The position numbers and the translations under genes were made by a program. Shown in pieces: positions 2,205-40,685 of a stretch of DNA of 43,900 nt. The DNA is from Escherichia phage slur05, in the sequence record NC_028901.1; one strand, 5' to 3'. Positions within the stretch are counted from its first letter, which is position 1. Each line of letters opens with the position of its first letter. A model generated the notes under the pieces. The model was not told the DNA's origin. It saw only the letters and a program-made list of their open reading frames with translations, and ran no database searches.

Positions 2205-2238
2205 ATTGGTTGCATAATTAGATTGGTTGCATTATCTT
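2205..2238 (+). promoter_or_regulatory. Promoter-like element: tandem ATTGGTTGCAT boxes, TTGCAT-17-TATCTT
   Basis: ATTGGTTGCAT at 2205-2215 and 2222-2232; -35-like TTGCAT 2210-2215, -10-like TATCTT 2233-2238. Confidence 0.4.
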
Positions 2239-2284
2239 AAGGGTGTCCGGTTGGACGCCCTTTTTAATACCTGGAGACAACACG

Positions 2285-5119: not shown

Positions 5120-6805
5120 TTATGCTTTAGTCAGTGCCTCGACCGCGACTTTCAAATCAGCTACGGCAGCTTTCAGTTCTGCAATCTCGGCCTTGTTCGC
5201 CTCGTCACGCGCTCTTAACGCTTTAATAGCTGCCAGGCAATCCGCGACAAGCGGGTTTAAGTCTAACGTCATCATCCCCGGCACTTCGTGGTCGTGCACA
5301 TATTCCCTGTCAACCGTTGCCGCTTGCTGTGCAATGATTCCGCGTCGCGTAGATCTCTCCGGTTCGTCAAACGTGTACCGGAACAACTTAAACTCAAGGC
5401 GGTTGATGTTATCCAGTGCCGCTTCCACATTTAAATTGCCCTTAATATCCTTCACACGGGCGTCAGACTTACCAGCATCTTGCACCCGCGACCATGTTTT
5501 CGTTGTGGAGGAGACTTGCGCGTTGCCGGAGTCGTTCCAACGATAGTAGAGCGCTGGCAGCGCGCCGACCATAACCTGTGCGACACGAGAGGGCGTGTAG
5601 GCAGATTGAAATCCTGCTCCGTTTACCGGTGCCCATGTAGGGGTGCTGATCGACTGCGAGAAAAAGCAAGCCTGCGTATTTGGGGGCGCGTATGAGTATT
5701 CAATCCCAAGTCCGTAGTCCCCCGGCTTCACCGCTTCGCACCAGTTCTGCAGCGCACCATTCTCTTTAGTTCTCCAGAAAAAACGGCTTTGACGTGCGGC
5801 GAACTGTACCGCGTAGTTTTCCTCAAACTTAACATGCAGACCCGCCGCCGAAGTACCCTCGATCGGTGATCCGAAGACGGTAGCGAGATAGGTGCTTCCG
5901 TCAACTTCGTTCCAACTTCCGCCAGGTGCGTTGCCGTTAATGCCATAATCCCCAACGCCGATTGCGTTGAGGGTCTGCCGTGCCGCTGATTTGTCAGTGA
6001 GGTCGGTTAGGTTGTTACTTACCTTAGCGTATTGAGACGGGTCAACCTCGTTTTTGAATTGTTCGGCCTCGTTCCTGTACCCCTGAGCGGCATCACGGGC
6101 GGCTTGCGCGTCCGTCTTCGCGGTGTTGGCCTGATCGCGAATAACTCCGGTATCCGTCTTAATTTGGTTGGTCTGGTCCTTGATGGCCTGCGTATCCGTC
6201 TTAATCTGGTTGGTCTGCGTCTTGATGGTATTGGTGGCGTCGTGGATAGCCTGTGTGTCCGTCTTAATCTGGTTGGTGTTGTTGTAGATGACCTGCGCGC
6301 CTTCCTTGAATCCTTTAGCTTCGTTCCTGGAATTCTGCGCGGCTGCTTCCGATGCGGCGGCTTGTTGCTGCAGGTCGCGCATTTCCACTGGGTCGATCTG
6401 TTTCATCAACTGCGACAGGTATCCCCATGACATACCCTGCATCACCTGCCCGTTCGGCAGCGTGACCGTGATTTCTTCAGCGTCGCCGAAGATTGCACGC
6501 CAGTTGTTTTCATCTGCAATCATCAAGCGCAATGCTTTTTGAGCCTGTACGGTAACGCCCATCGTTGCCAGTGACATGGTATCGCGCTTAACACCATCCC
6601 ACGCAAGGCCGGTTGCCGTTGGGCCGTCGAACGGCAACACCAGCGTGAGCGCGGTTGCGCTTTCAATGGACGCGATTGCCACGGTGTATGGGACTTGTCC
6701 TACCACCAGCGTCAAGAAGTCGCCAGCTTTAAACGCAGTAAACGTTGTGCCGACCCCTACTACAGCCTTGCTATTATTCGTTACAGATAGCGTACCCGCT
6801 GCCAT
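5120..6805 (-). CDS. Tail fiber protein
   Basis: 561 aa with Gly/Thr-rich N-terminus, tandem repeats TNQIKTDTQAI(K/H)DQ, C-terminal coiled coil; sits in the tail module with a strong terminator at 5089-5115. Confidence 0.65.
   Translation of the reverse strand: MAAGTLSVTNNSKAVVGVGTTFTAFKAGDFLTLVVGQVPYTVAIASIESATALTLVLPFDGPTATGLAWDGVKRDTMSLATMGVTVQAQKALRLMIADENNWRAIFGDAEEITVTLPNGQVMQGMSWGYLSQLMKQIDPVEMRDLQQQAAASEAAAQNSRNEAKGFKEGAQVIYNNTNQIKTDTQAIHDATNTIKTQTNQIKTDTQAIKDQTNQIKTDTGVIRDQANTAKTDAQAARDAAQGYRNEAEQFKNEVDPSQYAKVSNNLTDLTDKSAARQTLNAIGVGDYGINGNAPGGSWNEVDGSTYLATVFGSPIEGTSAAGLHVKFEENYAVQFAARQSRFFWRTKENGALQNWCEAVKPGDYGLGIEYSYAPPNTQACFFSQSISTPTWAPVNGAGFQSAYTPSRVAQVMVGALPALYYRWNDSGNAQVSSTTKTWSRVQDAGKSDARVKDIKGNLNVEAALDNINRLEFKLFRYTFDEPERSTRRGIIAQQAATVDREYVHDHEVPGMMTLDLNPLVADCLAAIKALRARDEANKAEIAELKAAVADLKVAVEALTKA
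6100..6300 (-). repeat. In-frame tandem repeats (~33 bp units) inside the tail fiber gene
   Basis: Repeated CCGTCTTAATCTGGTTGGTCTG-type units encoding TNQIKTDTQAIxDQ. Confidence 0.6.
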
Positions 6806-14219: not shown

Positions 14220-16862
14220 TCATCGTTTGTAAAGTACACCACCCGGTTTCGTCGCCTTCACGATCTCGGCCTTGACCGACTCGGTGATTTGCTTCCCGAA
14301 CGCCTGCGCGGTGCGCGGGTCTGGTCCGCTAACACTGGTATCCGTCTTACCGGTCCCCATGTTAACGTTGGTCGTTACAATCATCCCCCCGCCTACACCG
14401 GCAGCGGCGACTCCAAGTTTGCCGTCCGGGCCGCGCTTCAGTGGCATGATGGCTTCGGGTCCGGCCTCACCCATCAATCCTGCGCCCTTAGCGAACGCCT
14501 TGACGCCATAACTGAAAAAGGTTGGCTGGCTTACCACCTGCCCCGAATAGGCCGCGAGATTGCCCCCTGCGTACGCTCCGCCGTCCGCATTCTTAGTGAG
14601 GCCGGAGAAGATAGCGCCGAACAATCCGTTTTTGCCGCCGTCGCCACCGAAAGCGCTAACGATGGACTTGAACGCCTGCGAGGTAGCCAGCTTTATTAAT
14701 TCGCTCAGAATGGACTTAACCATATCTTTTGCGTTCAGCTTGCCAGCCTCGAAAAACTCGTTCATCGTGTCCTGCATAGCGCCGAACGTGAATTTTGTGA
14801 GTGACGTCATCTGCGTGTAGCCGCTACCCATTTCATCCACGCTATCCTTAAGCCCGCGGCTGAAGCCATCCCATAGCGAGGCGTTAGCACCGGTCTGTGC
14901 TTCCTGCACTTCGCGCAGCTTAGACACCGCCAGGTCAATATCGGTATCGTTAGCACCAACGCGCTTAAGGCGGTCAATCAGCTGTAATTCTTCGCGCAGG
15001 TTAGCCGCTTCGCGAGTGGAAAGCGCATAGCCCGCCGCGGTGGCTTTTAGCTCGGCGTTCTGGTTCTTAACGAAGGAGTCGATCTGCGCGTGCGCCTTGA
15101 CCTGCTTCTCTTTCGCGTCCAGCAATTTGGCTTCTTCGACGATCTGCTCGCGTACTTCCTTCACGCGTCCGAATTCGACCATCTGCTGCTTTTCTGCTGC
15201 CGTTAGTGCTCTTTCTTTGCTTGCTGCGATTAACTGCTCATTATCCGCGATCAGCTTGTTTAGGGCCGCCTGCGCGCGTTGCGTGCGGGTCTGCGTCGAT
15301 GCGTTGGCTTCGATCTGCTTGCCGGATTCTCGAAGCTGGGCCAGTTCGCTCCGTGCTACTTCCAGCATTTTCAGCCCGGCATCGACTCGAACAGCGGCGG
15401 CCTTCTTCGGGGCGGGGTCTTTGTACCGCTCGTTGACCTGCTTCACCGCCTCGGCAAGCTCTTTCTCGTCAATCACGCCGCGCTTATTAAGCAAATTGAG
15501 GCGGGCGATCTCGTCGGCGCGCCTCTTCGCGTTGGTTGCGTACTCCTTCTCAAACGCGGCGCGGTCGCGGGCGGTGCGGTTTGCCTCTTCGTTCGCCTTT
15601 GCTGCTTCGTCAGCGGCACTTGCGTTGTCTCGCTCTGCACGGTTGCGCAGGGTGAGCGACGCCACTACTTTTTCCTGGGCTACCAGTTCGCTGTAAAGCA
15701 TGTTAATACGCGCTTTCTGCGCTTCGGTCATCACCCCACCGGCAGCGTTTACCGCTTTCATCTCGGCATAGTAAGCCGTGGTCAGTCGCTGCAATGATTC
15801 ACGCGCTTTCATCTCTGACTCATTCGAGGACTGCGCGCGCCCGACATCCAGGATGGCATCCCACATAGATTTAGCTGCCGATATAACGACGTTCATCGAC
15901 CGCTCAAGCGTACCCATGTTGGACTTGATCTCATTGGTCATAGTGGTAAACGACGCTGCGGCTGTTTTGTTAGCCAGCGCCACCGCTTCGGTTTCGCGAC
16001 CAGCCGTCACTAGTGACTGCACCTGCTGGATCTGCGCTTCGTTTACGACGTGATACTTATCCGCCAGCGCACGCAGTCCGCCAACGGGGTCGGTTGACAG
16101 CTTCGCCACCGCCGCCACCACATCCTCGATCGGCTGGCTGGACACCTTCGCAAAGTCATTAACTACCTTAGCCAATGCGCCGAAGTCACCACCCGCTTTC
16201 ACACCCGCCGCCGCCAGCGCCTGGATTGTGTCACGCGTCTTGCGGAATGATCCGCCCATGCGCTCGGCGTTCTCGGATAACACCAGGATCTGGTTTGCAG
16301 TGAGGCCGGAAATGTTACCTGACAGCGCCAGCGTCTTGTTAAGCGCGGCGACCTGGTTCTCTGCGCGGGACGTAATTGCCACGCCCACGCCTAACGTTGC
16401 CGTTACGGCGGCGAGGCCGATCCCTACTGGGCCGAGGAAGCCCGCAACATAACGCAGCGTGTTACCCAGTCCACCGAACGCCCCAGTTAGCTGCGGTAAC
16501 TGCTGAAGCATGACGCGGTGAACCGGCATCCCCATCTCAAGCGTTACCGCAATATCCTGTAGCTGGAATGCGGCGTTACGCGAGGCAAAGCCCAGGTTTT
16601 TAGTCGACATCCCTAACCTGTTGGCGAGTCGCTCCTGTTTAGTCATGCCATCGGCGGCGCGCTGCGATTCGTTTGCCAGCTTTTCCATTCCGCCCGCGGC
16701 GTCACTCGTCACCTTTTTGGATTTGCCGAGGGTGTCGTTTAATTTCTTAACCTTGTTTTCTGTGTTCTCGGATTTCTGTGCGAAGGAGTCCAGCACAGTA
16801 TTTGCCGTTCTGATTTGTGCAACATCAGCCTTTAGCGTGATGCCTGCTGCCTGATCTGCCAT
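14220..16862 (-). CDS. Tail tape measure protein
   Basis: 880 aa, long Ala/Glu/Lys-rich coiled coil and Gly-rich C-terminal region; between chaperone and minor tail genes. Confidence 0.8.
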   Translation of the reverse strand: MADQAAGITLKADVAQIRTANTVLDSFAQKSENTENKVKKLNDTLGKSKKVTSDAAGGMEKLANESQRAADGMTKQERLANRLGMSTKNLGFASRNAAFQLQDIAVTLEMGMPVHRVMLQQLPQLTGAFGGLGNTLRYVAGFLGPVGIGLAAVTATLGVGVAITSRAENQVAALNKTLALSGNISGLTANQILVLSENAERMGGSFRKTRDTIQALAAAGVKAGGDFGALAKVVNDFAKVSSQPIEDVVAAVAKLSTDPVGGLRALADKYHVVNEAQIQQVQSLVTAGRETEAVALANKTAAASFTTMTNEIKSNMGTLERSMNVVISAAKSMWDAILDVGRAQSSNESEMKARESLQRLTTAYYAEMKAVNAAGGVMTEAQKARINMLYSELVAQEKVVASLTLRNRAERDNASAADEAAKANEEANRTARDRAAFEKEYATNAKRRADEIARLNLLNKRGVIDEKELAEAVKQVNERYKDPAPKKAAAVRVDAGLKMLEVARSELAQLRESGKQIEANASTQTRTQRAQAALNKLIADNEQLIAASKERALTAAEKQQMVEFGRVKEVREQIVEEAKLLDAKEKQVKAHAQIDSFVKNQNAELKATAAGYALSTREAANLREELQLIDRLKRVGANDTDIDLAVSKLREVQEAQTGANASLWDGFSRGLKDSVDEMGSGYTQMTSLTKFTFGAMQDTMNEFFEAGKLNAKDMVKSILSELIKLATSQAFKSIVSAFGGDGGKNGLFGAIFSGLTKNADGGAYAGGNLAAYSGQVVSQPTFFSYGVKAFAKGAGLMGEAGPEAIMPLKRGPDGKLGVAAAGVGGGMIVTTNVNMGTGKTDTSVSGPDPRTAQAFGKQITESVKAEIVKATKPGGVLYKR

Positions 16863-16926
16863 TATGCAGTCCCCTTTTTTATGCAGTTGCCGATGGATAT
16901 TGTATCAGCTATTTCAAAACAAACCT

Positions 16927-17246
16927 TATTCAGTCTCAGACGAGGGGGGCCACTGACCCCCGTCTAGTCTGAAAGACTGGGGTGCTGTCCCGCTGTCCCG
17001 ATCGGCTGAAAACCGCGGCAGCACTGGCGGGGACGGGGTGCTGTCCCGCTTTGTCCCGCCTCTTGTTTGTCCCGCTTTCTGTCCCGTTTGTTTTATGCAC
17101 GAAAACCGAATACGTATGCACTTTTGTGGGGTGGGACAAAACGGGACGTCCCGCTTGTCCCGCTTTTTATTATGCAATGGAAGTGAGTAGGTATGCAGTT
17201 TCACAGGGGTGGGACAAAACGGGACGTCCCGCCTGTCCCGCTTCAT
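16927..17246. repeat. Structured non-coding repeat element, copy A: hairpin, GTCCCGC iterons and two GGGACGTCCC palindromes
   Basis: Core 16927-17100 is ~85% identical to 33700-33870; bulged stem-loop AGACGAGGGGGGCC...CCCCCGTCT, at least 6 GTCCCGC iterons, sub-repeat GGGTGGGACAAAACGGGACGTCCCGCNTGTCCCGCTT at 17127-17167 and 17207-17245. Confidence 0.8.
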
Positions 17247-17937
17247 TATGCGGGGTTCTGCTGCGCCATCTCATCAAGCGCGATTCGTTCCATTAGCTTG
17301 ATATCTTTAAACGCACGCTGCTCGTTTTCGATACCGTGCATCTTAAATAACCACTCCAGCACGCCGTAGTCGATGCCGTATGCGCCACCAAATCCGGTGC
17401 GCCATTGCGTGGCGCAATCTGTGAAGACTGCGACTATCTTCGCGTTGTCAGGCCACAGCGCAACAGGTGGACAAACATCTTCGGGGGCCGCACCCCATAA
17501 ACTTGCGGCTAAATCTTCGGAGGGTGGCGGCGGGCCATAAAAGCGTCGCGCCGCCTCAATTAGTTTTTTTCACGCAACCCCATCAGTTCGAGATAGTACG
17601 ACGTGTGGAACACACCGAACGCGCGTGGATAGTTGACCACCAGGCGGCGGACGTTCTCCGCGTTAAATTCGTCCGGCAGATTCCAGCCTTCTGCGACGTG
17701 CATGATGGCCTCGACCATAACGTTAAAGCCGTCCGGGTCATTGTCGTCATATTCCGACAACTTGCGTTCGGTGTCCTGCATGGTCTGCGAAAATTCGTCG
17801 ATAGGGCGGTGGCGGACGGTGAAAGTCATCTTCCCCGGCTCGTTCTCACCAGGGCGCGGGATCTCAATCGGCAGCTTAAAGGTCGGCTTAGGGTCAAGTG
17901 TAAATAGTGGTGCTTTAGCCATTGTAGTATTCTCCAA
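17247..17937 (-). CDS. Tail assembly chaperone G-T fusion made by -1 frameshift
   Basis: Minus-strand heptamer A_AAA_AAC (plus 17563-17569) at the end of the G-like ORF; the -1 frame stays open for ~105 codons (LIEAARRFYGPPPPSEDL...QQNPA) to a stop at 17247-17249. Confidence 0.6.
17560..17922 (-). CDS. Tail assembly chaperone (lambda G-like)
   Basis: Start refined to MAKAPLF with GGAGA RBS; acidic ~120 aa protein; ends at slippery heptamer A AAA AAC next to its stop codon. Confidence 0.65.
   Translation of the reverse strand: MAKAPLFTLDPKPTFKLPIEIPRPGENEPGKMTFTVRHRPIDEFSQTMQDTERKLSEYDDNDPDGFNVMVEAIMHVAEGWNLPDEFNAENVRRLVVNYPRAFGVFHTSYYLELMGLREKN
17563..17569 (-). other. Programmed -1 ribosomal frameshift site (A AAA AAC) for the G-T chaperone
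   Basis: Slippery heptamer in the last codons of the G-like ORF with an open -1 frame downstream (17247-17562). Confidence 0.6.
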
Positions 17938-18777: not shown

Positions 18778-19200
18778 TCAGGCGCAACAGGTGTAGGGTA
18801 CTGTAACCACGATGCGGGCGCGATCAACATCCTCAATCACCGAACTGGTGTATGGCGCGTCTTGAAGCTGGAACGCAGCGCCGGTAAGCCTTACGGCCTG
18901 CCACTTGTCAGACGTCGCGATGGCGTCCGCCAGTTCGCTCGCATACTGTGTGCCAGTGCCCGCAGGAAATACCACAGCGACCTGATACACGCCTGCATAG
19001 ATCCGGCCCTTCTGCTGGAAGCCCACAAACTGGGTCGGGGCCGGAAGCAGATATGGTTCCAGGTAGACACCGCTGCCGTTTGCGTGGTCTCCGCTCACAT
19101 TCTCCCAGTTAACCTTTATCGGGCGCGTGCTAGTGCTCAGGCTTACCGATAACTCTTCTACTACGCTGTTAAGCGCCTTGCGGATTAGAGTATTGCTCAT
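18778..19200 (-). CDS. Tail terminator / tail completion protein (putative)
   Basis: 140 aa immediately upstream of the major tail gene; assigned by position only. Confidence 0.4.
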   Translation of the reverse strand: MSNTLIRKALNSVVEELSVSLSTSTRPIKVNWENVSGDHANGSGVYLEPYLLPAPTQFVGFQQKGRIYAGVYQVAVVFPAGTGTQYASELADAIATSDKWQAVRLTGAAFQLQDAPYTSSVIEDVDRARIVVTVPYTCCA

Positions 19201-19793
19201 TATTTCACCTTCGAATTGATTTCTGCCGCTACGACGCGAACAATCCCCGCGGGCGCTTGTTTACTCCAGCCATACTCGAGTCGCTGCGCATACGGCACAT
19301 TGTTAGTAAACCAGATAGACCCGTATTCACCGGAATCGTAATGCGCCAGCACTTCACGCCCTGCGGCTAATGTTGCCGTTCCGGCCTTGTCCACGCGGTC
19401 AATAGCGCCGACAGCCGGGCGGTCGAACGTAACCTGCCAGTTTCCCCGGAAGCGTCCGCCGGTGTAATTCTTCGCAGCCCAGCCACGCTGGCGGAACGTG
19501 ACGTTGCCGTTTTTAGTTTTGAATGAGATGAGCACACTGGCGTGCTTCTTCTGCCCGCGCTTCAGTTTGCCGCCATTCTTGCGGCGCTGCGCGGCGTTCA
19601 CCTTGTTCGCGTGTTCGCGTGCAAGCGCGTAGGCCTTGTTAATCTTCCACCGGCGTGGGTCGCCTACCGGGGAGATATCAATAAGGCGTCCGAGTATTTG
19701 CATACCGTACGCCCGCACCGCCTTATCGTTGTTCTCCTTCGTCTTATCCACCCACGTAGCAATAGTGGCGGCGAATGAGTAGACTTCAGCCAC
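19200..19793 (-). CDS. HK97 gp10-like head-tail joining protein (putative)
   Basis: C-terminal YAQRLEYGWSKQAPAG resembles the HK97 gp10 family signature; gene order. Confidence 0.45.
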   Translation of the reverse strand: MAEVYSFAATIATWVDKTKENNDKAVRAYGMQILGRLIDISPVGDPRRWKINKAYALAREHANKVNAAQRRKNGGKLKRGQKKHASVLISFKTKNGNVTFRQRGWAAKNYTGGRFRGNWQVTFDRPAVGAIDRVDKAGTATLAAGREVLAHYDSGEYGSIWFTNNVPYAQRLEYGWSKQAPAGIVRVVAAEINSKVK

Positions 19794-33478: not shown

Positions 33479-33699
33479 TGTTCAGTCCTCATGTTGGGGT
33501 GCAACCAATATAGCAAGGTGCCAGGCGGAACGCAACCAATATTAATCACGCGCATGAAAAAGTTGATCGCTATCTGCTGTGACTGCAAACCGCATTTTTC
33601 ACTTCGCATAATGCAACTCGCATTGGTTGCCTAGTTCATCCGCGACCGCACTTCGCATCATGCTGCCGTGTATTTTGCAATCCCCGGATTTTATTCAGT

Positions 33700-33870
33700 C
33701 TCAGACGAGGGGGGCCGCTGACCCCCGTCTAGTCTGAAAGACTGGGGGTTGTCCCGCCTGTCCCGCTCCTCTCCAGGCCGCGCCATACGGGGCGGGACGG
33801 GGGTGCTGTCCCGCTTTGTCCCGCCCCTTGTTTGTCCCGCTTTCTGTCCCGCTTACTTTATGCAATAAAA
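33700..33870. repeat. Structured non-coding repeat element, copy B
   Basis: Same hairpin and GTCCCGC iteron series as copy A, with inverted GGGAC...GTCCC pairs; lies in the 533 bp non-coding region beside the primase-helicase gene. Confidence 0.8.
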
Positions 33871-33973
33871 CTGCATAACTATTCATTATATTTACACTAC
33901 ACGGCAACCAATACGACCCGATAAAAACACTCAAAATGGCAACCAATGCGCGCAAAATTTAACCTTTTAGCGA

Positions 33974-34012: not shown

Positions 34013-36277
34013 TTAATCTTTCAGATCGTCATCGGTCGCAGAAAGCGTGATGGGTATATTCGTTTTAATGACGATATTCGACGACCCATAGATGGCCCCG
34101 GTGTGCGGATCTGTATAAAAACCGAGCACGCCGCGCTCCACCATATCGTCTATTGCCTTCGTCGATGTGCCACCTTTTGCCAATCCCGCCTGGCGGACAA
34201 TTGCCGATTTACTGAATCCGGTATGGTCCGGGTTATCTTCCATCAGTTTTTCCAGTGCCGCATAAAGCACTTTCTCTTTTTCATTGCGCGGTCCTGCGGC
34301 GTTCTCATCCTTAACTGCGGCCTTGCCCGCGGCCTTCGCCTGTTCGATGGCGAACGGTGCCAGGGCGACAGGTACGAGATAAAGAGTCTCGTCGCGTGGC
34401 GTGGATGCAATTGGCTTGACGTCCCAACCGGCAACCACGTCGCCGAAGTCAGGCCCGGTGCTGGTGGACTGGTGTGATTCGAACGCTTCGGACTTGCGGA
34501 GATCCACCTTAACCTTGCACTTGAGCAGGACGAAGCCGCGCGGCGCTTGCTTGATGCCGTTACGCGCCTTTTCGTGATACAGGTTCAATTGGCCCGGCTG
34601 ATTGTCGTCCGGTTGCTCGAGGAAGAACGCAGAATCGACAGCGCCATGCAGCGCGCCGGACCCACGGGGAGATCTGCTGCCGTTTGCACCCTTCGCCGGG
34701 TGGTGGATGACGCCCGCACTGCCGCCTGTATTTTCCGCAATGGCCTTCAGCGCTTTGACCACTTCACCCATATCGCTGGCGTTGTTCTCGTCGAACGGTT
34801 TAGCATCGGCGGACCGCAGCGCAACAGTCTGGTTGAGTGAGTCGAACGCCACCAGGCCAACCGGCTCGCCGTTAGCGGTGCGGTTGATGAAGCTGATAAC
34901 TTCACGCAAGCCGGATTTGCTGGTGATATCCCAGCCGCGTGATTGCAGATCGATAATGTGCAGCTTGTCCAGGTCGTGCTCATATTTAATCTGCAATGCT
35001 TCCTTACGCTGGTTGGAGGCTTCGCCACCTTCCGCGTCGAAATAGAAGCAATGAGACTGGACGACCTTCGCGCCGCCGAACGGAATCCCCGCGGCAACCG
35101 CACCCATTTGCCCCAGCACATAGAACGACTTACCGATGTTCGACTCACCGGCAAGATACCAGGTCGATTTAAAGTTAATCAACCCCTCGATGATCGGGTC
35201 GTGCTTGCTGAACAGTGCAACCGGCTCGTTGTCCAAGTCTGCGTCCGTACATCCGCCGTACTCGTCGCCGTCTCCGACCGCATCAACGATATGCGCATAG
35301 CACGATTCCACTTCCTCGTCGTCCAGTCCTGGGAGGATGGCGGCGATTTGCTTACGTGACATGTTGTGCGGTTCGACGTTCAGGTGGTCCGGGATCCCGA
35401 TAAGACGTAGCGCCAGGTGCTGGTGTCTGTTCAGTTCGGAACAGCACTCGTTGCCGGTGTGCATACACTTGAAACGGATCTCGCCATCCTTAACCATGAT
35501 AGCGGTGGACCCTTCGCCACTATGCAGATGTTCGTTCGGGCACGGCACTTCATAACCGCGACCAGAAGATAACTCCTCGAATCCGGCCTGGAAGCACCAG
35601 TCCAGAATGCCGTCTGCCACTGCGTCGTCGCCATGGGTAAGCTCGCGGCGTACTTCCTCTTTTTCCACTCCCAGCTTATCAGCCAGGCGAAGCAGACGAC
35701 GGACGCGGGCACGTTTGCCGTAGTGACACTTAACAACCGATTGCTGGTGAGGCAGGTACATAAGGCGGTTTGTGTCTTTCGTGCAATCGTCGAAGTCCAC
35801 ATCTGACAGGCCCAGTTGGTGTAATAGTGCATACTGGACGCGGCCCAGGTCTTCAGCCGGTACAGGCTTGTCAGTGAGCACCAGGAAACGAGCGCAACGC
35901 GTGCCACCTTTCAGCGGGTGGCGATCGCCGGTTGTGGTGTGAAATACATGTTCCAGTCCCGCGTCGATGAACGCCTTACGGCAGCGGCGCAGGGTGCGGG
36001 TGTCGGTACGGTCAATATCGAAGAACAGGATCGAGCGATCCACCGCACTGGTCTTGCGGCGTAATCCGTCACTGGTATAAGCCACAATCCCATCAGCCTT
36101 ACGCTTGCGGCGCGCATACTCCGCTTTATCTTCCGTTTTGTTGATATGCACCGAGGAGATTTCTTTCGCATCATTGATAAATTCGAAAAACTCTTCGGTA
36201 GTCATCTGGAAGTTTTCCGCCCTGGCTTTTTCGCCTTTTTTAGCGGGTCGTGTTACAGCGAATTTAATCAAGCTCAT
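34013..36277 (-). CDS. Primase-helicase (primase/prim-pol-like N-terminus plus P-loop helicase)
   Basis: 754 aa; N-terminal Asp-rich motif (LFFDIDRTD), Cys/His cluster (CPNEHLH...C...NECC), Walker A LAGESNIGKS, Walker B-like LVAFDSLNQ, sensor GVIHHPAKG. Confidence 0.7.
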   Translation of the reverse strand: MSLIKFAVTRPAKKGEKARAENFQMTTEEFFEFINDAKEISSVHINKTEDKAEYARRKRKADGIVAYTSDGLRRKTSAVDRSILFFDIDRTDTRTLRRCRKAFIDAGLEHVFHTTTGDRHPLKGGTRCARFLVLTDKPVPAEDLGRVQYALLHQLGLSDVDFDDCTKDTNRLMYLPHQQSVVKCHYGKRARVRRLLRLADKLGVEKEEVRRELTHGDDAVADGILDWCFQAGFEELSSGRGYEVPCPNEHLHSGEGSTAIMVKDGEIRFKCMHTGNECCSELNRHQHLALRLIGIPDHLNVEPHNMSRKQIAAILPGLDDEEVESCYAHIVDAVGDGDEYGGCTDADLDNEPVALFSKHDPIIEGLINFKSTWYLAGESNIGKSFYVLGQMGAVAAGIPFGGAKVVQSHCFYFDAEGGEASNQRKEALQIKYEHDLDKLHIIDLQSRGWDITSKSGLREVISFINRTANGEPVGLVAFDSLNQTVALRSADAKPFDENNASDMGEVVKALKAIAENTGGSAGVIHHPAKGANGSRSPRGSGALHGAVDSAFFLEQPDDNQPGQLNLYHEKARNGIKQAPRGFVLLKCKVKVDLRKSEAFESHQSTSTGPDFGDVVAGWDVKPIASTPRDETLYLVPVALAPFAIEQAKAAGKAAVKDENAAGPRNEKEKVLYAALEKLMEDNPDHTGFSKSAIVRQAGLAKGGTSTKAIDDMVERGVLGFYTDPHTGAIYGSSNIVIKTNIPITLSATDDDLKD

Positions 36278-36287
36278 TGCCGTTGCC

Positions 36288-36617
36288 TTACTTTGAAGTT
36301 TTATTATTGCGTACCCAGGAGCGCACTGTGCTCTGATTAATTCCGGTCAACTCGGCGATCATTGCCCATGACTTTCCCTCATTGCGCAAACGGATAACCT
36401 GCTTTTTGTATTCTTCCATTTCTTCATTGTGTTTTTGCAGCTTGCTTGCTGCCGTGCCGTTGAGCAATTCCAGCTTCGCGGTAAGCTCCTTCTCAGCACG
36501 CGATAATCTGGACACTTCAAATAACAGAGTATCCACCGCATTTGTGTAATACCAGGATTTACCCGCTTCGCCGCGGATTGCATTAGATAACACTTCAATT
36601 GCTTCTTTGATATTCAT
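36288..36617 (-). CDS. HTH DNA-binding protein (putative transcriptional regulator)
   Basis: C-terminal helix-turn-helix (SWAMIAELTGINQSTVRSWV); coiled-coil middle; heads a divergent regulatory region carrying an operator-like palindrome. Confidence 0.55.
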   Translation of the reverse strand: MNIKEAIEVLSNAIRGEAGKSWYYTNAVDTLLFEVSRLSRAEKELTAKLELLNGTAASKLQKHNEEMEEYKKQVIRLRNEGKSWAMIAELTGINQSTVRSWVRNNKTSK

Positions 36618-37019: not shown

Positions 37020-37538
37020 ATGTTTGAGCAAATCGTAAACCTGATCACTCGCGGCGTAGTAGCACTGGAAGTCATCGCTAAGCATTATGAAACCGTTGGC
37101 GCTGCCGTTGGTAAGCAGGACGACAAGAAGCCGTCTAAGGCCAAAAAAGAAGTTGTCGAAGATGGCGACGATGAAGCCGAAGACGAAAAACCGGCTAAAG
37201 CTAAAAAAGCACCGGCGAAGGGTAAGGCCAAAAAAGAAGTCGTAGAAGATGACGACGACGAAGACGCCGAAGACGAAAAACCGGCTAAGGCTAAAAAAGC
37301 ACCGGCGAAAGGCAAAGGTAAGAAAGATGCCGATCCGCTGGCAGAGATGCGCGACGAAATCAAACAGTATGCCGCGATTATCGCCGGTGGTGATGACGAC
37401 GATGCTAACGACGAATTTGACGACCTGCTGGAAGCGTTCGAGATCAAATCAATCGCCAAGCTGGAAGACGACGACGTCGAAGACTTCCACAAAGATTTAA
37501 AAGAAATCGTCGAGACTTATTTCGAACTGGAAGACTAA
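37020..37538 (+). CDS. Charged repetitive protein (Lys/Ala-rich repeats alternating with acidic blocks)
   Basis: GGAGA RBS; promoter TTGACA-18-TATCAT upstream; internal repeat KKEVVEDxDDExEDEKPAKAKKAPAKGK x2; acidic C-terminal half. Confidence 0.6.
   Translation: MFEQIVNLITRGVVALEVIAKHYETVGAAVGKQDDKKPSKAKKEVVEDGDDEAEDEKPAKAKKAPAKGKAKKEVVEDDDDEDAEDEKPAKAKKAPAKGKGKKDADPLAEMRDEIKQYAAIIAGGDDDDANDEFDDLLEAFEIKSIAKLEDDDVEDFHKDLKEIVETYFELED
37140..37300 (+). repeat. Direct ~75 bp tandem repeat inside the charged-protein gene
   Basis: AAAAAAGAAGT(T/C)GT(C/A)GAAGATG...GAAGACGAAAAACCGGCTAA(A/G)GCTAAAAAAGCACCGGCGAA occurs twice. Confidence 0.6.
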
Positions 37539-39902: not shown

Positions 39903-40685
39903 ATGGCTAAAGTCAACCTGAAAAATGTGCGCGTATGCTTCCTGAAAATTTGGGAACGTGATACCCCTAAACAGGATGGACAAAAACCGGCATACCGTGC
40001 CGTGATTCTTCTGGATAAAGAAGATCCGCAGGTGGACAAAGTGGAAGCGGCAGCGCGCGCAGTGCTCACCGACAAGCTGAAATCCGAGAAGAATGCCGAT
40101 AAGTGGATGGACCGCCACTACGCCCAGGATTCTAAGGAATGCGCAGTGCGCGACGGCGACGAGCGCGATGAAGTAACCGAAGAATTCGAAGGCATGTTGT
40201 ATATCAACGCCAAATCGTTCAAACAACCAATCATTCAAACGTCACTCGGCGAGAAGCAGACTGAACAAGGTCTGACCATCGACGGCGACGAGATTGAAGG
40301 CCAGGAGATCTACTCCGGTTGTTATTGCAACGTGTCCCTTGATATTTGGGCGTGGAACAACACCAACGGCAAGGGACTCGGTGCTGGCTTGCTGGGTTTA
40401 CGCTTCCGTGATGACGGTGAAGCCTTCGGCGGTGGCGGGTCTTCATGCTCCGATGAAGACCTGGACAACGACGACGAAGACGAAGCACCGCGCAAGGCTA
40501 AGAAGTCAAAACGTCGTGATGACGATGATGAAGATGACAAGCCGCGCAAGTCCAAGAAATCCAAGCGCCGCGATGACGACGACGATGAGGAAGATGAAAA
40601 ACCTCGCAAACGTCGTAAGCCACGCGATGACGAAGATGAGGACGACGACGAAGACGAAGCACCACGCAAACGTCGCCGCCGTTAA
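39903..40685 (+). CDS. ssDNA-binding protein (DUF2815-like) with charged repeat tail
   Basis: GAGGA RBS; promoter TTGACC-17-TAAATT (39809-39837); partner of DUF2800 nucleases; C-terminus has DDDEDE/PRKxKKSKRR repeats; terminator 40704-40727. Confidence 0.5.
   Translation: MAKVNLKNVRVCFLKIWERDTPKQDGQKPAYRAVILLDKEDPQVDKVEAAARAVLTDKLKSEKNADKWMDRHYAQDSKECAVRDGDERDEVTEEFEGMLYINAKSFKQPIIQTSLGEKQTEQGLTIDGDEIEGQEIYSGCYCNVSLDIWAWNNTNGKGLGAGLLGLRFRDDGEAFGGGGSSCSDEDLDNDDEDEAPRKAKKSKRRDDDDEDDKPRKSKKSKRRDDDDDEEDEKPRKRRKPRDDEDEDDDEDEAPRKRRRR

Follow-up and report, generated by a model that had tools for sequence, protein, structure and literature searches.

An iteron-bearing module present beside the primase-helicase gene and in the tail operon of Escherichia phage slur05: a candidate replication origin of Dhillonvirus

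Genomic setting and anatomy of the two repeat regions

The genome of Escherichia phage slur05 (NC_028901.1; the window referred to below is the whole analysed stretch of 43,900 nucleotides) carries its late genes on the minus strand, and between two of its tail genes lies a repeat-rich non-coding spacer, here termed region A, part of which recurs 16.8 kb away, next to the primase-helicase gene, as region B. The upstream neighbour of region A encodes the tail assembly chaperone, whose open reading frame (ORF) at 17560-17937 matches Phage_TAC_4 and is extended by a frameshifted, DUF1799-type T frame ending at a TAA stop codon (17246-17248), while the tape-measure gene starts downstream at 16862. 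The gap between them, put at about 380 bp in an earlier note on this DNA, comprises 383 non-coding bases. The sequence from 16880 to 17260 is 100% identical in Escherichia phage slur06 and 77-98% identical in approximately 150 other Dhillonvirus genomes, with constant position. A 106-aa ORF overlapping the element (16926-17246) was rejected as a gene, because Pfam returned no match to it and because neither length nor frame nor start is constant across five genomes; it is an artefact of translated repeats. Region B is located at the boundary of the early replication genes with the lysis and structural genes, and the two regions share the same orientation within the minus-strand transcription unit. 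The principal features are listed below.

14220-16862, minus strand: tape-measure gene (880 aa), downstream neighbour of region A
16863-17245, minus strand: region A, the whole spacer, with three tandem units on the sense (late-gene, minus) strand, the third being the core common with region B
16926-17120, minus strand: core A, the 195-bp module common with region B, with its box pair at 17092-17120
16931-16979, no strand assigned: 49-nt imperfect palindrome A with a stem of about 20 bp, CAGTCTCAGACGAGGGGGGCC-ACTGA-CCCCCGTCTAGTCTGAAAGACTG
17128-17165, minus strand: unit 2 repeat quartet, two direct and two inverted repeats
17169-17197, minus strand: box pair TGCATA-N17-CATAAT, between units 1 and 2
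17206-17243, minus strand: unit 1 repeat quartet, two direct and two inverted repeats including the palindrome CGGGACGTCCCG; on the sense strand GCGGGACAGGCGGGAC followed by GTCCCG-TTTT-GTCCCACCCC
17246-17937, minus strand: tail assembly chaperone G (17560-17937) with the frameshifted T extension (end 17246-17248), upstream neighbour of region A
33691-33885, minus strand: core B, 128 bp downstream of the primase-helicase stop codon, with six direct repeats, one inverted repeat (33792-33798), and a palindrome
33696-33744, no strand assigned: 49-nt imperfect palindrome B, differing from palindrome A in the loop only
34013-36277, minus strand: primase-helicase gene (754 aa), the proposed initiator; PHROG annotation 'replicative helicase-primase', with a central RepA-like AAA_25 domain
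34016-34375, minus strand: last 120 residues of the primase-helicase, with a winged helix at residues ~666-737, the proposed repeat-recognition domain
36288-36617, minus strand: small helix-turn-helix (HTH) regulator gene (HTH_23 / sigma-70 region 4-like), first of its operon and 10 bp upstream of the primase-helicase gene

The heptamer GTCCCGC occurs 22 times in the window against an expectation of 8.3 +/- 2.9, a number reached by none of 100 dinucleotide shuffles. Eight copies fall within 16987-17241, where the earlier note had counted at least six, and seven within 33751-33852, so that 15 copies are concentrated in two clusters spanning less than 1% of the window and the other seven correspond to chance expectation. 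Counted by the GGGAC core, region A contains 11 direct and 5 inverted repeats, and region B contains 6 direct and 1 inverted. The perfect palindrome CGGGACGTCCCG, of which two copies had been claimed, is found in the window only at 17142 and 17220, and the sub-repeat previously described as 37-41 bp long corresponds to the quartets of units 1 and 2, which are 97% identical by repeat finder.

Each unit of region A opens with a box pair of the form TG(C/A)ATA-N17-CATAA(T/A), and CGGGACA repeats follow 3-5 nt further on. The composite motif TG[AC]ATA-N16-18-CATAA[AT] has three occurrences genome-wide, all on the sense strand and all within regions A and B. Along the sense strand, core A starts with the box pair, which is followed by four direct CGGGACA repeats whose starts are 12, 16, and 10 bp apart. 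An inverted repeat (17030), which pairs with the third of these in a stem of 8-10 bp, comes next; about 30 variable bases separate it from two further direct repeats, and the 49-nt palindrome and AATAA complete the core. The bulged stem-loop and the separate small hairpin of the earlier note are both present; they are, however, parts of one structure, the 49-nt imperfect palindrome. Its single-stranded DNA fold gives z scores of -3.1 to -3.3 on either strand.

Positions 16926-17120 and 33691-33885 are 82% identical without gaps by repeat finder and 85.3% identical over 197 bp by BLAST (E 5e-56), which bears out the claim of a second copy of about 85% identity 16.8 kb away. All features named in the earlier note were thus recovered, either at the coordinates given there or no more than a few bases off. 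The two cores have a sharp common boundary, both beginning at ...TTATTCAGTCTCAGAC, and the box pair of core B (33857-33885) sits in a stretch of 77% A+T. A comparison of 36 distinct cores, drawn from about 20 phages, shows an invariant GCATAAA box and nearly invariant CGGGAC words and palindrome stems, with one substitution each; the spacers and the loop are variable. The stems are invariant across canonical Dhillonvirus cores and differ by one change in a lineage whose primase-helicase is 68% identical, the loop again being variable.

Conservation and history of the two copies

Both copies occupy the same two sites in approximately 150 Dhillonvirus genomes as well as in the lineage with the 68% identical primase-helicase (L271/L291), where the same word, CGGGACA, is present in each. 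The earlier note would have counted it as a refutation if close relatives all had the same spacer as ordinary intergenic DNA lacking conserved structure. Half of this applies: the spacer is present in all relatives, yet the conservation of its motifs is far above that of ordinary spacer DNA. The identity between copies A and B is 84-87% in every canonical genome compared and 74% in the 68% lineage, and orthologous copies from different canonical genomes are 85-95% identical, a pattern that indicates an old duplication. In phage Ioannina, copy B resembles A-type copies more closely than it does the B copies of other phages, which suggests that gene conversion has occurred at least once. The exact hairpin 19-mer AGTCTTTCAGACTAGACGG was found in IMG/VR solely on Dhillonvirus contigs of about 44 kb, mostly twice per contig, and a search of 100,044 bacterial and archaeal species genomes found no occurrence of the hairpin's 17-nt left arm.

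The T frame usually abuts the tape-measure gene in lambda-like tail operons, and the proposal that the spacer is an insertion relative to this arrangement is borne out by more distant relatives. Salmonella phage FSL SP-031 and Klebsiella phage VLCpiS11a have a T frame that overlaps the tape-measure gene and no tail copy; their sole copy of the module adjoins the primase-helicase gene, so that region A is a Dhillonvirus-specific duplication into the tail operon. A further observation concerns L291, in which two reverse-strand genes (126 and 123 aa; 18899-19647) with their own box of the ATTGGTTGC type are inserted between T and region A, identifying this junction as an insertion hotspot.

The repeats themselves have been recorded before. 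The record of Sodalis phage SO-1 (GQ502199 / NC_013600) contains repeat_region features named 'region A' and 'region B', which are the orthologous sequences and which its depositors described as direct, inverted, and palindromic repeats with mutual similarity and to which they ascribed a possible function; the names used here coincide with theirs. In addition, the record of phage HK578 labels the equivalent of the unit 1 hairpin a rho-independent terminator. A literature search found no paper describing or testing these regions. The presence of both repeat regions is thus already known from SO-1, as annotation alone, whereas the comparison across lineages and the link to the winged helix of the primase-helicase are new here.

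Modules and repeat words in related phages

Related phages (designated below by name or by L number) have a module with this architecture immediately behind the stop codon of the primase-helicase gene, and its repeat word differs by lineage. This position is seen in canonical Dhillonvirus, in lineages whose proteins are 67-72% identical (L271, L272, L273, L274, and L275), and in Guernseyvirinae-like phages with 44-49% protein identity (FSL SP-031, L213, L208, and L415). L213, L208, and L196 were obtained by filtering IMG/VR matches to the 14-mer GTGAATAGTTATGC. The last of these is a different phage: its module follows a gene for a RepA-like helicase whose C-terminal sequence is winged-helix-like, and a second gene, located downstream, encodes the primase. 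The repeat words are as follows.

Dhillonvirus and L271: CGGGACA
L272 and L273: GTGTGGCA
L274: GTGTGCCA
L275: GGTGCCA
L213 and L208: CGGACAA
Salmonella phage FSL SP-031: GGGGAGA
L415: GGGATAA
L413, L414, and L416: words with a GGGAT core
Klebsiella phage VLCpiS11a: a TTGCGAG-type word
L196: TGGACAT

All repeats of an array switch word together between lineages, and the order of the parts is retained. In most lineages, a pair of boxes some 21 bp apart comes first; direct repeats interrupted by an inverted one follow, and a long hairpin closes the module. VLCpiS11a, L413, L414, and L416 are without the box pair, VLCpiS11a having repeats and the long hairpin, and the L275 contig stops before the hairpin position. 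The sequence of the hairpin differs between genera while its place is kept (z -2.4 to -4.1); in L213, L273, and L415, the long hairpin is retained in place with a partly or wholly different sequence.

The box itself behaves differently from the repeats. The sequence GAATAGTTATGCA(G), usually present twice and 21 bp apart, is near-identical in Dhillonvirus, FSL SP-031, L213, L415, and the unrelated-looking L196, despite their differing iterons. Its sites are at 33857-33885 and 17092-17120 in the window, 13781-13816 in L156, 5319-5353 in L213, and ~3110-3145 in L415. Judged by this conservation, the box pair must be read by some conserved factor, for which a host protein, a primase start site, or an unwinding element are candidates. 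A reading as DnaA box was rejected as too weak, because the match to TGTGAATAG is 8/9 in SP-031 and L213 and just 6-7/9 in Dhillonvirus by inspection. Within the box region, the small palindrome at 33857-33880 reads TTATGCA-GTTTTAT-TGCATAA or TTATGCA-ATAAAAC-TGCATAA depending on the strain (SO-1, Zar3M, and others); its loop is exactly reverse-complemented between strains, which is a signature of a hairpin 'flip' by template switching.

IMG/VR scans for pairs of GTCCCGC, for the 14-mer GTGAATAGTTATGC, and for pairs of GTGTGGCA returned, among the matches listed, mostly chance or unrelated sequences. Many unrelated phage contigs (IMG/VR L300, L307, L311, L313, L331, L345, L356, L376, L396, and others) carry direct-repeat arrays of GTGTGGCA with inverted copies in A+T-rich intergenic DNA, and from these occurrences the word appears to have been adopted repeatedly by unrelated phages.

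The primase-helicase and its candidate repeat-binding domain

Pfam recognizes AAA_25 (PF13481, E 5e-20) as the only domain in the whole primase-helicase; the N-terminal 342 residues have no Pfam match, and Toprim, D5_N, prim/pol, and SF3 domains were undetected by Pfam. Modelled with AlphaFold, the last 120 residues show the topology H1-b-H2-H3-wing, with a predicted local distance difference test (pLDDT) score of 80-86 in the core, and the top Foldseek matches to this C-terminal model are all winged-helix DNA binders.

The last ~120 residues are also the most divergent portion of the protein. Between SP-031 and L213, which have different iterons, identity is 79-87% in the first 600 alignment columns and 39% in the last ~100, whereas L213 and L208, which share the same iteron, are 98% identical over the last ~100 columns. 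The residues of H2 and the start of H3 vary with the word as follows.

CGGGACA word, both lineages: FSKSAI..KGGT
GTGGCA word, both lineages: FSRRAI..GGSSTKP
GTGCCA word: FSARQI..PGGSTSKP
GGTGCCA word: FSKAAI..KGGSTTT

Moreover, three lineages with related helices (..GG[NKG]RRPA..) all have repeats with a GGGAT core. On these alignments, the putative recognition residues of H2 and H3 seem to track the repeat word, in a qualitative manner. The small HTH regulator encoded upstream was examined as an alternative repeat binder. Its pairing with the primase-helicase gene is conserved in all lineages examined, the Guernsey-like clade having an XRE-type regulator instead. However, its HTH is identical in all Dhillon-like lineages, whatever the repeat word, and a reader of the repeats would not stay invariant while the words change; the regulator was therefore rejected.

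A separate observation concerns the winged-helix profile (34016-34375), which matches every repeat of the TALE-like protein BurrH (PDB 4CJ9) with a summed E of 1e-27, single repeats being weak. The common motif is GFSxA(D/E)IVKIAGxxGG, and the H2-turn-H3 segment resembles one TALE/BuD repeat. This likeness, seen in the sequences, may be due to chance or to a distant link.

Comparison with known replication systems

Phage P4 requires two separated cis regions with the same octamer iterons, ori and crr, of which crr consists of tandem direct repeats. This layout resembles the arrangement of copies A and B and the tandem units of region A, as the slur05 regions (and likewise those of L291/L271) are two separated cis regions with a shared iteron word. 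In the P4 alpha protein, primase, helicase, and a C-terminal winged helix are combined in one polypeptide, and the winged helix binds the origin repeats (PMC4234260, PMC2777425). The two systems differ in that P4 alpha has a DnaG/Toprim-type primase and an SF3 / D5-like helicase, whereas the helicase here is RepA-like (PF13481) and unrelated in sequence, with no sequence match to P4 alpha in the PDB; in addition, the two sites in slur05 are 16.8 kb apart and one is within the tail operon. P4 is not known to have a counterpart of the invariant 49-nt palindrome.

On the Sulfolobus plasmid pRN1, the gene of a primase-helicase-winged-helix protein is accompanied by a small repressor gene and has an essential stem-loop on its downstream side (orf56 / ORF904; PMC4234260, PMC2777425), and its authors noted similar arrangements in some bacteriophages (PMC4234260). 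The gene order in slur05 is the same, namely a small DNA-binding regulator, the primase-helicase-winged-helix gene, and a non-coding long stem-loop just downstream. Nevertheless, pRN1 has no iterons; its protein combines a prim/pol domain (PF09250) with an SF3 helicase, neither of which was detected by Pfam here; and its stem-loop of ~100 nt is conserved in shape and not in sequence, in contrast to the 49-nt palindrome, which is conserved in sequence within the genus.

In the oriV of plasmid RSF1010, RepC iterons lie by G+C-rich and A+T-rich DNA, and the RepB' primase acts with the sites ssiA and ssiB. In outline, this IncQ origin relies on iterons, the RepA helicase, and hairpin priming sites that are exposed on unwinding (PMC4234260). 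Direct iterons beside A+T-rich DNA and hairpins are found in both systems, and, by its PF13481 match, the helicase here may be placed with RSF1010 RepA in one broad RepA-like family, although the phmmer comparison of the two (1G8Y) is not significant (E 0.49). RSF1010 uses three separate proteins, whereas binding, helicase, and primase functions appear to be fused here; no gene for a separate, RepC-like iteron-binding initiator was identified in slur05, and the winged helix is fused to the helicase. The ssi hairpins of RSF1010 are present on both strands, and the palindrome here folds on both strands (z -3.3 and -3.2), with a putative role in priming. By analogy, the module would work like P4 ori/crr, pRN1, and RSF1010 oriV, whereas membership in any of these families fails on protein homology.

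Functional interpretation and alternatives

The anatomy and conservation of the module, the lineage-specific switching of its words, the C-terminal winged-helix fold in the AlphaFold model, and the accelerated divergence of that domain were computed in this work. Judged from these sequence comparisons, regions A and B are somewhat more probably than otherwise copies of an iteron-type origin module recognised by the primase-helicase, B being the origin and A a second origin or an auxiliary site. This reading is favoured because the module adjoins the primase-helicase gene in many lineages, because its words switch wholesale, and because the winged helix evolves fast; the use of the same word by both copies, even in the diverged L291 genome, was also counted for it. 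We infer that the winged-helix domain binds the iterons, that the module fires replication, and that copy A adds to this function. The binding-site array proposed in the earlier note is thereby retained in its origin form, and its transcription-control and packaging forms are ranked as rivals.

In the proposed mechanism, the C-terminal winged helices of primase-helicase subunits would dock on the iterons, which would concentrate the protein and help ring assembly. The adjacent A+T-rich DNA would then melt, the palindrome would extrude, or both, and the fused primase would start DNA synthesis on the exposed strands. The ancestral origin would be copy B, located just 3' of the primase-helicase gene. 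Copy A would go back to a duplication into the tail operon that took place in the ancestor of Dhillonvirus, with two more partial units added to it, and may act there as a second origin or, like P4 crr, as an auxiliary cis site.

Several points weigh against an origin. The Foldseek E-values are weak (>=0.008), and the P4 alpha domain is absent among the matches listed. The correlation between word and domain is qualitative, as slur06 and L271 both use CGGGACA yet have C-terminal domains that are 54% identical, and other lineage-variable proteins exist, such as the small terminase subunit, which varies between clades. Copy A is seen in lineages with the CGGGACA word only: two metagenome scans at the Joint Genome Institute (JGI) yielded no tail-operon copy of a lineage with another word, a search with the chaperone protein gave canonical Dhillonviruses only, and the L272 contig ends short of the tail-operon junction. 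It is also uncommon for an origin to sit within a tail operon, an arrangement that calls for a reason, and the conserved box pair likewise calls for an explanation. The GC skew, whose minimum coincides with the divergent promoter region (36-37 kb), is governed mainly by gene orientation and was thus rejected as an uninformative indicator. Finally, the searched literature contains no replication, binding, or transcription experiments on any Dhillonvirus.

Transcription control offers a different account of the repeats, as operators of a phage regulator at two operon boundaries (early/late and proximal/distal tail), with the hairpins as terminators or attenuators and the boxes as promoters. This is unlikely but deserves serious attention, given that region B lies at the switch from early replication genes to lysis and structural genes, that reduced expression past the major tail and chaperone genes would be stoichiometrically sensible, and that the box pair, each time followed by a repeat 3-5 nt downstream, loosely resembles -35/-10 hexamers. 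Nonetheless, a consensus scan found no sigma-70-like promoter in the core, the second box of SP-031 and L213 has no plausible -10 hexamer, and the -10 element is not kept across genera. The HK578 terminator label favours this account, but terminator-like sites occur on the antisense (plus) strand only (17030, 17142, and 17220); the sense strand offers just a 4-bp inner stem (CGGG/CCCG) before TTTTG, and no T-run follows the 49-nt palindrome on either of the strands. Boxes of a separate promoter-associated motif, ATTGGTTGC, flank region B and are absent from region A in slur05, which argues that the shared core is not a promoter module. The sole dedicated regulator nearby, with its invariant HTH, cannot read the changing words. 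Because some origins also need transcription, such control could coexist with an origin role. A related and rather more doubtful idea is that the array and palindrome of copy A form a roadblock or gate coupling occupancy by the replication protein to the expression of the distal tail genes. Such a gate would fix how much tape-measure and tip protein is made relative to major-tail and chaperone products, or time distal tail expression to the end of DNA synthesis, and the primase-helicase would double as a late-gene regulator.

The same orientation of both copies in the minus-strand transcription unit would also suit a structured RNA in the long late transcript, in which the hairpin would be an RNase III-type site, comparable to the intergenic sites of T7, and the GGGAC repeats would be sites for an RNA-binding protein or a GGA-rich sponge. 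A hairpin of ~20 bp with internal loops has the size of an RNase III substrate, and its stems are kept while the loop varies; the stems, however, are invariant in sequence rather than compensating. No match at the gathering threshold or at E up to 5 was obtained with Rfam 15 apart from chance-level microRNA-type hits (E 0.2-4), ARAGORN found no known tRNA in the element, and the fold of the whole core is modest (z -1.4 to -2.2) and alike on both strands. The switching of repeats as whole words between lineages fits protein-DNA recognition and not base pairing, and the inverted copies and perfect DNA palindromes fit dimeric duplex binding. The structured RNA raised in the earlier note accordingly received little support and is improbable. 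Clustered short repeats flanking a special site are known from P1 pac, SPP1 pac, and lambda cosB, and this resemblance, together with the difference of the small terminase between clades, would suit a packaging site (pac- or cosB-like) whose repeats bind the small terminase subunit. Several database assemblies do begin or end within region A or B, but breaks at a 195-bp repeat are expected assembler behaviour. The conserved position by the primase-helicase gene, 5 kb from the terminase genes, the location of the L196 module inside a replication cassette, and the presence of two copies 16.8 kb apart all speak against packaging, as do the end calls by PhageTerm, which are headful for Opt-212 (PMC9022532) or cos ATCTTAAGGG for EE09 (PMC10673088), the latter sequence lying at 2234 in the window, outside A and B. 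A packaging site is therefore considered very improbable. The least credible account is that of a miniature mobile element or its relic inserted between T and the tape-measure gene. Two copies with sharp common boundaries and the lack of the tail-operon copy in relatives outside the genus would be in keeping with it; however, each genome has exactly two copies at sites that are fixed in ~150 genomes and in the 68% lineage, and this, with the absence of the hairpin left arm from the 100,044 bacterial and archaeal genomes searched, excludes a recent mobile insertion. The duplication is old, copy B is orthologous to modules in other genera, and the unit has no transposase partner, no surrounding terminal inverted repeats, and no target-site duplication, so that the small mobile insertion once suggested for this locus is not supported and largely refuted.

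Other sequence features

The 9-mer ATTGGTTGC (GCAACCAAT on the other strand) occurs 15 times in slur05 and 13-17 times per Dhillonvirus genome. Its sites in the window are at 2205, 2222, 3880, 6822, 22821, 22834, 33061, 33501, 33532, 33622, 33904, 33939, 33993, 36808, and 43649. They are mostly intergenic, often paired just upstream of a ribosome-binding site, overlap promoter-like hexamers, and cluster on both sides of region B. All Dhillon-like lineages keep ATTGGTTGC together with the invariant HTH_23-type regulator, and the Guernsey-like clade has GTTGGC(A/T)GC boxes with its XRE-type regulator. By this co-occurrence, ATTGGTTGC is probably the operator of the small regulator or a promoter element.

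The decamer ATCTTAAGGG is the 5' cohesive end assigned by PhageTerm to Dhillonvirus EE09 (PMC10673088), and headful packaging has been reported for the genus (PMC9022532); with both reports published, Dhillonvirus termini are unsettled. The sequence is found once in the window (2234-2243), directly after a ATTGGTTGC box pair and before the terminator-like hairpin GGGTGTCCGGTTGGACGCCCTTTTT. Other repeats lie within coding sequence. A 21/42-nt periodic repeat (6107-6316) is contained in a minus-strand ORF of 561 aa (5120-6805) that is by position a tail-fibre gene, and acidic, Asp/Glu-rich repeats of 45-90 nt (37143-37322 and 40451-40669) occur within two plus-strand early ORFs.

Significance

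No replication origin has been defined so far for Dhillonvirus or its Guernseyvirinae relatives; these coliphages and Salmonella phages are common and serve in therapy, biocontrol, and studies of defence systems. If the origin reading is true, it would provide testable origin coordinates and a candidate initiator domain, and would explain why assemblies of these phages frequently break at two particular places. It would also raise the question of why an origin module was duplicated into the tail operon and then kept. Furthermore, at least seven matched iteron/winged-helix pairs would constitute a natural series for the evolution of initiator specificity and for orthogonal phage replicons.

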